Positions 13,465 to 24,553 are shown, numbered from the stretch's first letter. The stretch is 64,000 nt of DNA from Escherichia coli (GCF_051903065.1 NZ_CP178440.1), one strand, 5' to 3'. Program-made: numbers and translations. The notes: generated from the sequence alone by a model not told the origin.

Positions 13465-14074
13465 CTGCTCTGATTCTGACTACTGCAGTGTTGTCCCGTC
13501 TGCCGGGCGCACCTTCGGCTCCCGGCTGCCTGGCGGCATCCGGTCGTCAGGCCCGACTCCGACAGGCAGCTGCTGGCGCACCTGCCAGTCTCCGCCGAAC
13601 CCGCTGGCGCGGTTTCGGGCTGTCGCTACGGTCCGATGCGTGAAAACCCCGGGCTTGCAGCGACCGTTCCGGTCGCGCCGCCTCTGTCGCGCCGTGGCCT
13701 GCGCTCCTGGCATCCCGGCAAAAGGCCGCCGGGATGTAAGGCGCAACGCCGTTTCGCAAACCGCGCTTCACGTCGTTGCGGCGGGTCCCTGCCCGTTGTT
13801 GTGTCCGGTGCCATTCACCTGTTTAAGCCCCTGTCGCCGGGGGCATAGACAGCCACAACCGTCTCCGCCAGTCCAGGGGTGAAATGCACATCCCGCAAAA
13901 CTTTTTGCCCGGAAGCAGGCAAAAACTTTTGCGGTCTGCCCCCGGACAGTCGTTTCCGGCCGTGGCAGTGATGCCCCTTGCGGCGAAGGTTCTCAAACAG
14001 GTGATGGTGAATACCGGAGGGAACAAAGAGCAGGTCCCCGCAAAACGTCAAAACCGCGGCTCCCGAAACTCAAC
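13465..14074 (+). promoter_or_regulatory. Frpo/ssi-like structured repeat, copy B, immediately upstream of ssb
   Basis: 610 bp, nearly identical to copy C (a few mismatches), more diverged from copy A; inverted repeat cgcaaaactttttgcc / ggcaaaaacttttgcg. Confidence 0.65.
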
Positions 14075-14115
14075 AGATGATGGGGGCTGAAAACATCAAC
14101 AGAAGGAGACACATC

Positions 14116-14655
14116 ATGGCAGTTCGTGGAATTAACAAGGTCATTCTTGTCGGTCGTCTGGGAAAAGATCCGGAAGTCCGTTACATCCCCAACGGGGGCG
14201 CAGTGGCAAACCTGCAGGTCGCCACGTCGGAAACCTGGCGTGACAAACAGACAGGGGAGATGCGGGAGCAGACAGAATGGCATCGCGTGGTGCTGTTCGG
14301 CAAGCTCGCGGAAGTGGCTGGCGAATATCTGCGCAAAGGCGCGCAGGTCTACATCGAAGGTCAGCTTCGCACCCGTAGCTGGGAAGATAACGGTATCACC
14401 CGTTACGTCACCGAAATTCTTGTTAAGACCACAGGCACCATGCAGATGCTGGGACGTGCCGCAGGTGCTCAGACTCAGCCGGAAGAGGGGCAACAGTTCA
14501 GCGGTCAGCCTCAGCCGGAACCACAGTCGGAGGCCGGTACGAAAAAAGGTGGCGCAAAAACGAAAGGCCGTGGACGTAAGGCCGCGCAGCCCGAGCCTCA
14601 GCCGCAACCGCCGGAGGGGGAGGATTACGGGTTTTCAGACGATATCCCGTTCTGA
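14116..14655 (+). CDS. ssb: Plasmid single-stranded DNA-binding protein
   Basis: [23 protein letters not shown]... OB-fold N-terminus, Gly/Pro/Gln-rich linker and acidic C-terminal tail DDIPF. Confidence 0.9.
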
Positions 14656-14717
14656 TCGGGCTGACTGTGATAACCGCCCCGCCCCGTTCTGTGCGGGGCA
14701 TCACCGGAGAGATGAGA

Positions 14718-14951
14718 ATGAGCGAATATTTCAGAATACTTCAGGGGCTGCCTGACGGTCCTTTTACCCGCAAACATGCCGAAGCTGTTGCCGCACAGTA
14801 CCGGAACGTCTTTATCGAGGATGACCACGGCGAACAGTTTCGCCTGGTTGTCCGTAATAACGGTGCAATGGTCTGGCGTACCTGGAATTTTGAGGTCGGT
14901 GCCGGGTACTGGATGAACCATGTCATCAGGGATTTCGGGATTCTTAAGTAA
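14718..14951 (+). CDS. Hypothetical small protein (YubL-like position downstream of ssb)
   Basis: [14 protein letters not shown]..., RBS ggagaga upstream. Confidence 0.5.
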
Positions 14952-15016
14952 GAGAGGTGCCGGACGGGGACACGTCCGGCAGACAATCATTATTACCGTT
15001 TTGGGAGGTACTAACT

Positions 15017-15591
15017 ATGTCAGTTACAGAGTCTAAGGCAAAAACGGAGCGTAAATCCAGCCGTAAACCTGCAAAAACGCAGGAAACAGTCCTGTCTGCC
15101 CTGCTGGCGGAGACGGCTGAAGTGAGCGTGCCGCTGGCCTCGCTGATTAAGTCACCGCTGAATGTGCGCACGGTGCCGTATTCTGCGGAGTCCGTCAGCG
15201 AACTGGCAGAGTCCATTAAAGGTGTCGGCCTGCTGCAGAATCTGGTTGTCCATGCCCTGCCTGGTGACCGTTACGGTGTCGCCGCAGGTGGTCGCAGGCT
15301 GGCGGCACTCAATATGCTGGCAGAGCGTGGCATCCTTCCGGCTGACTGGCCTGTCCGCGTGAAGGTCATCCCGCAGGAACTGGCGACGGCGGCATCGATG
15401 ACCGAGAACGGTCATCGTCGGGATATGCACCCTGCCGAACAGATTTCCGGATTCCGTGCAATGGCGCAGGAAGGCAAAACACCTGCACAAATCGGTGATT
15501 TGCTGGGCTATTCACCCCGCCATGTCCAGCGAATGCTGAAACTGGCAGACCTTGCGCCTGTCATCCTCGATGCGCTGGCAGAAGACCGCAT
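15017..15591 (+). pseudogene. ParB-like leading-region gene, N-terminal fragment interrupted by IS26 copy 2
   Basis: ORF runs without a stop into the IS26 left inverted repeat at 15592; remainder resumes in frame at 20742. Confidence 0.6.
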
Positions 15592-22083: not shown

Positions 22084-22518
22084 ATGAAAACTGAACTGAC
22101 CCTGAATGTATTACAGACCATGAGTGCACAGGAATATGAAGATATCCGGGCTGCCGGAAGTGATGAACGCCGTGAGCTGACACACGCCGTGATGCGGGAA
22201 CTGGATGCGCCGGACAACTGGACGATGAATGGCGAGTACGGCAGCGAGTTCGGCGGCTTTTTCCCCGTCCAGGTCCGTTTCACGCCTGCCCACGAACGTT
22301 TTCACCTGGCGTTATGTTCACCGGGCGATGTCTCTCAGGTCTGGGTGCTGGTTCTGGTGAATGCCGGTGGTGAGCCGTTTGCGGTGGTTCAGGTGCAGCG
22401 GCGGTTTGCACCGGAAGCTGTCAGCCATTCACTGGCACTGGCGGCGTCACTGGATGCGCAGGGGTACAGCGTTAACGACATCATTCATATCCTGATGGCG
22501 GAAGGAGGTCAGGCATGA
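22084..22518 (+). CDS. psiB: Plasmid SOS inhibition protein PsiB
   Basis: [32 protein letters not shown]... matches PsiB as recalled. Confidence 0.9.
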
Positions 22519-23234
22519 GCGCACGTTCACAGGCACTGGTTCCTCTCAGCACAGAGCAACAGGCCGCATGGCGGGCGGTGGCGGAGACCGAAAAACGCCG
22601 CCATCAGGGTAACACGCTGGCTGAATATCCGTATGCGGGTGCGTTTTTCCGCTGTCTGAACGGAAGCCGCAGGATATCGCTGTCTGACCTGCGATTTTTC
22701 ATGCCGTCCCTGACCGCAGAAGAACTGCACGGCAACCGTCTTCAGTGGCTGTATGCCATCGATGTGCTGATTGAAACACAGGGCGAGGTCTGCCTCCTTC
22801 CCCTTCCCGGCGATGCAGCAGAGCGCTTGTTCCCGTCGGTGCGGTTTCGTGTCAGGGAACGCAGTCGCCATAAATCCGCGCTGGTCATGCAGAAGTACAG
22901 CCGCCAGCAAGCGAGGGAGGCAGAGCAGAAAGCCCGTGCGTACCAGGTGCTGGTTGCTCAGGCTGAAATCGAACTGGCATTTCATTCACCGGAAACAGTC
23001 GGAAGCTGGCATGCACGCTGGAGTGACCGGGTGGCAGAGCATGACCTGGAACCCCTGTTCTGGCAGTGGGGCGAGCGTTTTCCGTCACTGGCCGGAATGG
23101 AACGCTGGCAGTGGCAGGATATGCCATTCTGGCAGGTTATCGCGGAAGCCAGTCTGGCAGCCAGAGAGGCCGGTCATGCTGTCCGTGAGATGGAGCGGTG
23201 GATGGTGCCGAACAAACTCCGGGAGGCAGCGTGA
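22515..23234 (+). CDS. psiA: PsiA
   Basis: 239-aa ORF overlapping psiB stop, conserved psiB-psiA arrangement. Confidence 0.85.
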
Positions 23235-23455
23235 TGCGGCAATAATCACACGGATTACCCGTGAACTGGTTGAACGACCAGATTATTTTCAGGGAAAGTG
23301 AGTGTGGTCAGCGTGCAGGGATATGAGCTATGATGTGCCCGGCGCTTGAGGCTTTCTGCCTCATGACGTGAAGGTGGTTTGTTGCCGTGTTGTGTGGCAG
23401 AAAGAAGATAGCCCCGTAGTAAGTTAATTTTCATTAACCACCACGAGGCATCCCT

Positions 23456-23668
23456 ATGTCTAGTCCACATCAGGATAGCCTCTTACCGCGCTTTGCGCAA
23501 GGAGAAGAAGGCCATGAAACTACCACGAAGTTCCCTTGTCTGGTGTGTGTTGATCGTGTGTCTCACACTGTTGATATTCACTTATCTGACACGAAAATCG
23601 CTGTGCGAGATTCGTTACAGAGACGGACACAGGGAGGTGGCGGCTTTCATGGCTTACGAATCCGGTAA
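23456..23668 (+). CDS. mok: Mok (modulation of killing) reading frame overlapping hok
   Basis: 70-aa ORF in alternate frame spanning hok. Confidence 0.55.
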
Positions 23669-23672
23669 GTAG
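23514..23672 (+). CDS. hok: Hok toxin (52 aa), host-killing membrane peptide of the hok/sok post-segregational killing locus
   Basis: Hand translation [52 protein letters not shown]; absent from ORF track because under 60 aa; the antisense Sok RNA should lie on the minus strand just upstream but was not mapped. Confidence 0.85.
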
Positions 23673-23943
23673 CAACCTGGAGGCGGGCGCAGGCCCGCCT
23701 TTTCAGGACTGATGCTGGTCTGACTACTGAAGCGCCTTTATAAAGGGGCTGCTGGTTCGCCGGTAGCCCCTTTCTCCTTGCTGATGTTGTACGGGCATGA
23801 ACAACCTGACTTCAGGAAGGTCGTTTCCCTTCAGGAACGGGGATGAACGCGCGCCTGCGGCGCCCGTTCTTTTCCCCCGCCTTCTCTGGTTATGGCCTGT
23901 CAAAAATCACATCACCTTCCCTGTGATTATTCTCTTTTTCTTC

Positions 23944-24553
23944 CTGCTCTGATTCTGACTACTGCAGTGTTGTCCTGTCTGCCGGGCGCACCTTCGGCTC
24001 CCGGCTGCCTGGCGGCATCCGGTCGTCAGGCCCGACTCCGACTGGCAGCTGCTGGCGCACCTGCCAGTCTCCGCCGAACCCGCTGGCGCGGTTTCGGGCT
24101 GTCGCTACGGTCCGATGCGTGAAAACCCCGGGCTTGCAGCGACCGTTCCGGTCGCGCCGCCTCTGTCGCGCCGTGGCCTGCGCTCCTGGCATCCCGGCAA
24201 AAGGCCGCCGGGATGTAAGGCGCAACGCCGTTTCGCAAACCGCGCTTCACGTCGTTGCGGCGGGTCCCTGCCCGTTGTTGTGTCCGGTGCCATTCACCTG
24301 TTTAAGCCCCTGTCGCCGGGGGCATAGACAGCCACAACCGTCTCCGCCAGTCCAGGGGTGAAATGCACATCCCGCAAAACTTTTTGCCCGGAAGCAGGCA
24401 AAAACTTTTGCGGTCTGCCCCCGGACAGTCGTTTCCGGCCGTGGCAGTGATGCCCCTTGCGGCGAAGGTTCTCAAACAGGTGATGGTGAATACCGGAGGG
24501 AACAAAGAGCAGGTCCCCGCAAAACGTCAAAACCGCGGCTCCCGAAACTCAAC
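23944..24553 (+). promoter_or_regulatory. Frpo/ssi-like structured repeat, copy C
   Basis: 610 bp nearly identical to copy B (offset 10479 bp); followed by an RBS and an ORF. Confidence 0.65.

Follow-up and report, generated by a model that had tools for sequence, protein, structure and literature searches.

Three direct repeats in an IncF leading region

We analyzed a 64,000-nucleotide stretch of DNA from Escherichia coli (GCF_051903065.1, NZ_CP178440.1), called the window throughout, and a sequence of about 640 bp that occurs in it three times, as copies A, B, and C. The window is an IncF plasmid leading region. Its close relatives are IncF plasmids, and Rfam matches within it include the traJ 5′ untranslated region together with FinP (27512-27621), two sok loci, CopA, and tra antisense RNAs. 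It is from the leading region that an incoming resistance plasmid draws the functions with which it survives its first minutes in a new host, namely, SOS inhibition, protection of single-stranded DNA (ssDNA), anti-restriction, and methylases. The three copies resemble Frpo, an ssDNA promoter of the F plasmid, and lie as follows.

10145-10786, plus strand: repeat copy A, from repeat search and alignment; transferred-strand (T-strand) hairpin at about 10442-10758; heads block 1
13454-14094, plus strand: repeat copy B, directly upstream of ssb, the Frpo2 position of F; T-strand hairpin at about 13749-14069
23933-24573, plus strand: repeat copy C, upstream of a ygeA homologue, the Frpo1 position of F; T-strand hairpin at about 24228-24548
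26712-26724, minus strand: F-type nic-site motif GGGGTGTGGTGCT in oriT, an exact match that occurs once

A repeat search of the window found all three in the same orientation, as direct copies. An ungapped alignment, with an offset of 10479, shows that B and C differ at 4 of 641 nt (99.4% identity), a likeness that is beyond chance and that breaks off sharply at both ends of the repeat. The mismatches fall at 13462, 13464, 13497, and 13564, with none over the last 530 nt; counted from 13465, there are 2 in 630 nt. Copy A is 88% identical to B over 633 BLAST columns and is a mosaic: identity is 97% over the first 300 nt and 76% in a 107-nt block toward the 3′ end. An initial annotation of this DNA had described B and C as repeats of 610 bp that differ by a few bases and span 13465-24553, with A clearly more diverged. 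The likeness and the position both stand; the length was underestimated, and the borders had been set about 10 to 20 nt short at each end.

The 5′ part of each copy (13454-13748 in B) is GC rich and forms smaller hairpins (z of −4.2). It is the best-conserved part of the repeat across A, B, and C of the window (96 to 98% over its first 190 nt). Among plasmids these 190 nt exist in two unrelated versions: other plasmids have the first 190 nt of B and C swapped for unrelated sequence of similar length, and the window lineage has the same version in all three copies, which gives them a longer shared homology. Upstream, copy B adjoins a run of CTACTG hexamers in a pyrimidine-rich tract (about 13420-13453, 2 units). 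The run reaches 4 to 6 units in some plasmids (L009 10182-10230, L013 11189-11225, and L014 10186-10222), and this tract at the repeat border looks like a length-variable microsatellite.

The nic motif is found on the minus strand, and traM, traJ, and FinP follow just downstream of it. Hence the transferred strand, which serves as template for all leading genes, is the minus strand; those genes (ssb, psiB, psiA, ygeA, and others) all lie on the plus strand. Measured from nic, C is at 2.1 kb, B at 12.6 kb, and A at 15.9 kb, and the T strand enters in the order C, then B, then A. In the relatives, the gene order up to B is antirestriction, DUF1380, hypothetical, A, a 76-amino-acid (76-aa) open reading frame (ORF), DUF3560, methyltransferase, and B. 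From B on it is ssb, DUF905, ParB-like, psiB, psiA, hok, C, a 95-aa ORF, DUF932, lytic transglycosylase, and traM. The corresponding features of the window, grouped into blocks, are these.

11004-13258, plus strand: block 1, between A and B (ORFs, annotation of relatives, NCBIfam)
11004-11234, plus strand: 76-aa ORF, block 1
11286-12647, plus strand: DUF3560 protein, block 1
12695-13258, plus strand: class I S-adenosylmethionine-dependent methyltransferase, block 1
14116-23668, plus strand: block 2, between B and C (ORFs, Rfam, annotation of relatives)
14116-14655, plus strand: ssb, block 2
about 14718-14951, plus strand: DUF905/yfjA, block 2
about 15016-15591 and 20742-22029, plus strand: ParB-like yubM/yfjB, block 2, in two parts
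15592-20741, plus strand: IS26-bounded insertion within the ParB-like gene
22084-22518, plus strand: psiB, block 2
22515-23234, plus strand: psiA, block 2
23340-23668, plus strand: hok/sok, block 2
24594-25820, plus strand: block 3, downstream of C
24594-24881, plus strand: ygeA homologue, block 3 (gene name from Couturier 2023)
24999-25820, plus strand: DUF932 protein at the F ygeB position, block 3 (gene name from Couturier 2023)

NCBIfam left three of these products unnamed: those of the 76-aa ORF, the DUF3560 gene, and the ygeA homologue. The genes earlier assigned to the interval (ssb, a ParB-like gene split by IS26, psiB, psiA, and hok) all lie between B and C. The insertion in the ParB-like gene is bounded by identical, direct IS26 copies (15592-16411 and 19922-20741), with no 8-bp target duplication around it, and carries ParA/ParG-type partition genes and a 502-aa YadA-like trimeric autotransporter adhesin. 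Because of this insertion, the B-to-C spacing is stretched to 10.5 kb from the usual 5.4 kb or so. In PLSDB, only NZ_CP058715.1 (E. coli, pangolin) has the same IS26 cargo, at 99.9%. A third IS26, inverted, lies at 1365-2184. On the minus strand, Rfam reports AS-pc01 (antisense to pHK01_035; 90.4 bits) at 10907-11009; this match falls between copy A and the 76-aa ORF and is antisense to the block 1 leader. There are two hok/sok-family loci in the window, at 23340-23516 and 62863-63020. We considered whether the second might neutralize the one in the interval; this is unlikely, as the two have only 108 of 169 aligned bases in common.

Homology to Frpo and the T-strand hairpin

By homology, A, B, and C are assigned to the class 1 ssDNA promoters (Frpo/ssi/ssp1) of F-like and I-like conjugative plasmids. 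The core of B and C (13644-14094 in B) is 96.7% identical over 451 nt to Frpo1 of F and 87.9% identical to Frpo2. The Frpo1 match is NC_002483.1 63562-64011 (locus L016, 13563-14012), upstream of the ygeA homologue. Copy A is 93.4% identical over 438 nt to Frpo2, the copy before ssb. In F, as in the window, ssb and the ygeA homologue are each preceded by a copy. These F copies are known as Frpo2 and Frpo1, respectively (Couturier et al. 2023, PMC9849209); Frpo1 and Frpo2 also go by the names ssp1a/ssp1b, and Frpo1 is the ssDNA promoter characterized by Masai & Arai 1997 (PMC9849209). Wen et al. 2025 (PMC12672017) placed Frpo and ssi elements together in class 1 of the ssDNA promoters. Each window copy also aligns, over its 3′ 265 nt, with the Frpo fragment of the Samuel 2024 construct, at 88 to 93% identity (93.3% for A). 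That fragment drove acrIIA4, an anti-CRISPR gene, from the T strand (Samuel 2024). Promoter function of this class has been published repeatedly (Masai & Arai 1997; Bates 1999; PMC9849209; PMC11541004; PMC12672017), and zygotic induction from ssDNA only has been demonstrated for the F homologues (PMC9849209, PMC11541004, PMC12672017).

In folding calculations, the minus strand of B forms an imperfect hairpin of about 320 nt at −108.6 kcal/mol (z of −10.2). The plus strand is less stable, at −93.4 kcal/mol, as is expected if G-T pairs have been selected on the T strand. Despite its divergence, the minus strand of copy A gives the same kind of fold (−96.1 kcal/mol, z of −7.9). An alignment of 35 distinct copies, drawn from 16 sources, gave a consensus hairpin of 97 pairs; 99.2% of the cells are paired, and compensatory double changes occur at 8 pairs (89 cells). 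Controls in which the structure was slid along the alignment gave 42 to 48% pairing, a comparison that favors the consensus, because the structure was derived from the same alignment on which it was scored. This modeled pairing indicates that a long T-strand stem-loop is kept by selection. Within the hairpin we picked candidate promoter hexamers by eye.

13870-13898, minus strand: candidate −35 TTGCGG, 17-nt spacer, candidate −10 TGGACT; weak, low confidence

Both hexamers belong to the non-template arm of the B hairpin, directly beneath the A/T-rich apical stem and beside an internal mismatch bubble. The site recurs in C at +10479, and the hexamer block is conserved in the quoted ssi sequence of ColIb-P9.

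Two other observations concern T-strand hairpins. An ORF of 68 aa lies wholly inside the Frpo hairpin, at 13884-14090 and 24363-24569 in the window and at 5378-5584 and 10794-11000 in L001. RefSeq names it "single-stranded DNA-binding protein" (WP_073520019.1, the same protein at both copies); the call is almost certainly spurious and its name borrowed. Elsewhere on the minus strand of the window, long T-strand hairpins are found at 8465-8885 and 5850-6300 (z of −5.2 and −6.3), in the intergenic regions upstream of the antirestriction gene and the DNA methylase, respectively. This is the placement of the class 2 and class 3 ssDNA promoters ssp2 and ssp3 (Wen 2025, PMC12672017; 2026 preprint).

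Concerted evolution and recombination junctions

We compared the 451-nt core of the copies among 11 plasmids. Within a plasmid, B and C are 100% identical in 6 of the 11, the window included, and at least 99% identical in a seventh, with a median of 100%. Between plasmids, the mean identity is 90.2% for B with B and 88.9% for C with C. There are five distinct haplotypes, each common to B and C of one plasmid, and these are 82 to 97% alike (3 to 18% different). When the C copies were permuted among plasmids, the observed mean identity was never reached in 20,000 trials, and the count of near-identical pairs was matched at p = 5 × 10−5 (overall p ≤ 5 × 10−5). The A copies behave as ordinary orthologues, 93 to 99.8% identical between plasmids and 73 to 89% identical to B and C of their own plasmid; the hairpin half of A is not homogenized with B and C. 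The apical stem and the outer stem come in discrete alternative versions that are combined differently among copies, making them mosaics, and one plasmid has A-type sequence at both its copies. The simplest reading of these patterns is repeated gene conversion, mostly between B and C.

Recombination between the repeats, the idea of the initial annotation, was examined through junctions. We built synthetic junctions from a 600-bp left flank, the 641-bp repeat, and a 600-bp right flank (1.84 kb) in all left/right combinations, searched PLSDB with them, and counted a record when the whole junction sat in one place. The counts are as follows, with "rep" standing for the repeat.

methyltransferase/rep/ssb, parental: 3329 records
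hok/rep/ygeA, parental: 2125 records
methyltransferase/rep/ygeA, B-C interval deletion: 37 records
hok/rep/ssb, tandem duplication: 6 records
DUF1380/rep/ssb, without block 1, the layout of F: 264 records
DUF1380/rep/ygeA, single copy with both blocks absent: 88 records
hok/rep/76-aa ORF, block 1 after block 2: 4 records

The B-C deletion is rare, at about 1% of records. Its 37 records are 94.9 to 98.7% identical to the query and come from several hosts, a spread that makes several independent events likely. For a tandem duplication of block 1 (methyltransferase/rep/76-aa ORF), 5 records matched, all in 2 to 3 pieces over about 3 kb. These matches are ambiguous because both flanks belong to the same 2.7-kb block, and they were not counted.

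Individual plasmids serve as examples. In pE309_IMP6, a single repeat lies between the methyltransferase gene and ygeA, and the plasmid corresponds to RCS59_p without the interval and exactly one copy of the repeat. Between the two plasmids, the flanks differ at 6 of 6609 and 0 of 6603 positions. The hybrid repeat has B-type bases at all three positions that distinguish B from C, which places the crossover somewhere in the other 625 bases, all identical. In pCAU16175_3, two ssb-to-hok blocks stand in tandem and encode different alleles of SSB and PsiB, which suggests that two plasmids took part in an unequal exchange. Four repeats occur in pLR-62-2_2, and block 2 has a copy of block 1 on either side. 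The initial annotation had suggested that related plasmids be examined for a single hybrid repeat with the interval deleted or tandemly amplified. Both were found, the first in 37 records, which include the near-isogenic case of pE309_IMP6 and RCS59_p, the second in the 6 duplication records. Always divergent copies and no junctions, the outcome it had named as evidence against itself, is not what the related plasmids show.

Some "complete plasmid" entries of 5.4 to 8.7 kb have no replicon and consist of leading-region blocks closed head to tail on one Frpo repeat (AP026511.1/AP026513.1 [L018, L017], NZ_CP051703.1 [L004], and NZ_OZ040492.1). Those with recombinant junctions measure 5391 bp (marked linear), 6769 bp, and 8744 bp. 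In strain TUM13066, the large IncF plasmid has a matching deletion junction.

Mechanism, competing explanations, and known systems

The reading we favor, with a probability of roughly 0.88, is that the copies are ssDNA promoters and that repeat-mediated gene conversion and block rearrangement follow as a side effect. Our own data concern the identity, position, and orientation of the copies and a hairpin with compensatory changes; for promoter action we draw on the published work on F. In the recipient, each copy on the transferred minus strand would fold into its hairpin of about 320 nt and be used as a promoter by the host RNA polymerase, so that the block lying 3′ of the copy would be expressed early and transiently. 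C would drive ygeA and the DUF932 gene; B would drive ssb, psiB, psiA, and hok; and A would drive the 76-aa ORF, DUF3560, and the methyltransferase. The transcripts may also prime complementary-strand synthesis, and the promoter would be off once the DNA is double-stranded. Since all blocks start with the same element of about 640 bp, the copies are long direct repeats in the double-stranded plasmid. Gene conversion would hold B and C identical within a plasmid while lineages diverge, the pattern seen in the five haplotypes. Unequal or intramolecular homologous recombination would delete, duplicate, and re-order whole blocks, and it is junctions of these kinds that occur in natural plasmids; we infer the RecA dependence and the direction of each such rearrangement. 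Deletion of block 2 is probably restrained by the internal hok/sok killer locus, as proposed by Couturier 2023 (PMC9849209). The initial annotation had not recognized the repeats as putative Frpo-type ssDNA promoters, each heading a block expected to be expressed early, and this role would be the reason that the repeats exist.

A number of points weigh against this reading. A strict σ70 consensus scan of copy B returned no −35/−10 pair, and the hexamers TTGCGG-17-TGGACT are weak and were chosen by eye. The 5′ 290 nt or so of the repeat falls outside the characterized hairpin and has no assigned function. PLSDB is redundant, and a single plasmid family (AP022361-AP022369) supplies 7 of the 37 deletion records. 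The junction counts do not separate block deletion from block insertion. The small replicon-less records are ambiguous and may be either excised circles that were plentiful enough to be assembled or assembly artifacts at repeats.

Other explanations account for parts of the data. The near-identity of B and C could stem from a recent duplication in this plasmid lineage, given 99.4% identity over 641 bp next to a diverged A. The initial annotation had offered recent duplication or gene conversion, and it is only the latter that holds up. Both positions, with their unrelated flanks, are occupied in F and in Salmonella and Klebsiella plasmids and are therefore old, and within-plasmid identity in five haplotypes that are 3 to 18% apart needs repeated homogenization. 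We reject recent duplication on these two grounds and consider it highly improbable. Purifying selection on promoter function, with no exchange between copies, draws on the fact that the hairpin is under selection, as its compensatory changes and 99.2% paired cells indicate. This cannot suffice by itself, because the element tolerates up to 18% divergence between plasmids, including alternative apical and outer-stem versions that still fold, and yet both copies in one plasmid have every variant in common, unpaired positions included. Moreover, Frpo1 and Frpo2 of F are just 89% identical, yet both drive early downstream expression (PMC9849209). We therefore reject selection alone too, and hold it to be the least credible of the explanations considered. 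As another possibility, the B-C interval could be a dedicated mobile cassette, with the repeats recognized by a site-specific or transposition-like mechanism that moves it; the idea was raised for a 9.7-kb IncI1 module (Venturini 2013, PMC3817090). In its favor, the presence, absence, duplication, and re-ordering of whole blocks have the repeats as their exact boundaries, and the replicon-less records resemble excised circles that contain a block together with a single repeat. Among the relatives examined, however, the blocks have no integrase, resolvase, or transposase annotated as a conserved component; the only transposases belong to sporadic insertion sequence (IS) elements (IS26, IS150, IS110, and IS2). 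The crossover in the pE309_IMP6/RCS59_p pair is not tied to a defined site but may be at any point of 625 identical bp, the mosaic segments fit homology-driven exchange, and the repeats already have a likely promoter function, demonstrated in their homologues. With no cognate recombinase annotated in the relatives examined and no short defined site at the borders, we reject a site-specific cassette as very improbable. The recombination cassette of the initial annotation thus survives as a direct-repeat substrate, with 37 deletion and 6 duplication records behind it, and not as a dedicated unit. The rearrangements look like by-products of ordinary homologous recombination that come with reuse of the promoter.

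A further alternative concerns the direction of events, loss or gain. The block-lacking layouts (the single hybrid repeat and the F-like two-copy arrangement) could be ancestral, the blocks having been gained by recombination of circular or co-resident donor DNA into a resident Frpo copy, so that deletion would not be the main direction. The junction counts carry no direction, F has the two-copy layout, the different alleles in the tandem blocks of pCAU16175_3 imply input from a second plasmid, and the IncI1 case was interpreted as insertion (Venturini 2013, PMC3817090). Against this, pE309_IMP6 and RCS59_p are near-identical over 13 kb of flanks, which makes their difference a recent event, and loss takes one intramolecular crossover while gain requires a donor. 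We consider predominant gain unlikely, though a serious contender; it would change only the polarity, and the repeats would be a recombination substrate in either direction. A bolder extension is that Frpo copies act as the joints of a modular exchange system among co-resident F-like plasmids. Whole anti-defense and establishment blocks would be swapped, stacked, or dropped by homologous recombination, and gene conversion between copies would keep the joints compatible. If so, differences in leading-region layout among IncF plasmids would largely reflect selected block shuffling and not accidental damage. The data show the junctions and the homogenization, and we regard this extension, with its putative selection of block shuffling, as rather improbable.

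If the promoter reading is correct, the shared hairpin explains both the means by which the blocks are turned on while the DNA is still single-stranded and the fact that the differences among IncF plasmids involve entire blocks. Annotations should label the repeats as ssDNA promoters; current pipelines call small ORFs within them. For assembly, near-identical repeats of 640 bp lying 5 to 10 kb apart are a likely source of mis-joined or spuriously circularized contigs. The promoters, the recombination risk, the hok/sok safeguard, and the single-hybrid-repeat variant are already published. We did not find in the cited literature the IncF junction frequencies, the hetero-allelic tandem blocks, the re-ordered blocks, or the homogenization of B and C. 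The junction counts, which give rough numbers only, and the concerted evolution are modest additions.

Functional long direct repeats that are homogenized by gene conversion and mediate deletion or duplication between them are familiar from rrn operons, tufA/tufB, and IS copies. Unlike these, the window repeats are non-coding, putative ssDNA promoters on a plasmid, and the interval contains a toxin-antitoxin locus that should penalize loss. The closest parallel is Frpo1/Frpo2 of F, which has the same positions, T-strand orientation, and long hairpin and a close sequence. F has two copies about 5.4 kb apart, with 89% identity over 559 bp as measured here (92% in PMC9849209), and the window has three, with Frpo2-type sequence at copy A and Frpo1-type sequence before ssb. 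Frpo1/Frpo2 has been recognized as a substrate for homologous recombination, with flm (hok/sok) in the interval expected to protect against deletion (Couturier 2023, PMC9849209). The IncI1 plasmid ColIb-P9 likewise has three dispersed, Frpo-homologous hairpins, ssi1-3, that head early leading-region operons (such as ssb, psiB, or ardA) (Bates et al. 1999; Nasim et al. 2004) and have been grouped with F Frpo by Wen et al. 2025 (PMC12672017). It differs from the window in its IncI1 backbone, in other downstream genes, and in a more distant sequence; when aligned by eye, only the inner stem blocks of its quoted ssi sequence match the window copies. Finally, pO26-CRL125 and pO111-CRL115 differ by a 9.7-kb block (ssb, a parB homologue, psiB, psiA, and ardA) that lies between Frpo-containing repeats R1-R3 in one plasmid only (Venturini 2013, PMC3817090). 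The sister plasmid has a single hybrid repeat, which joins the initial 239 bases of R1 to the final 222 bases of R3 (PMC3817090). This pair resembles pE309_IMP6/RCS59_p and is the single-hybrid-repeat variant that the initial annotation predicted. It is one IncI1 pair, which its authors read as insertion of a possible mobile element; here such junctions are counted across IncF plasmids, together with duplications and re-ordered blocks.

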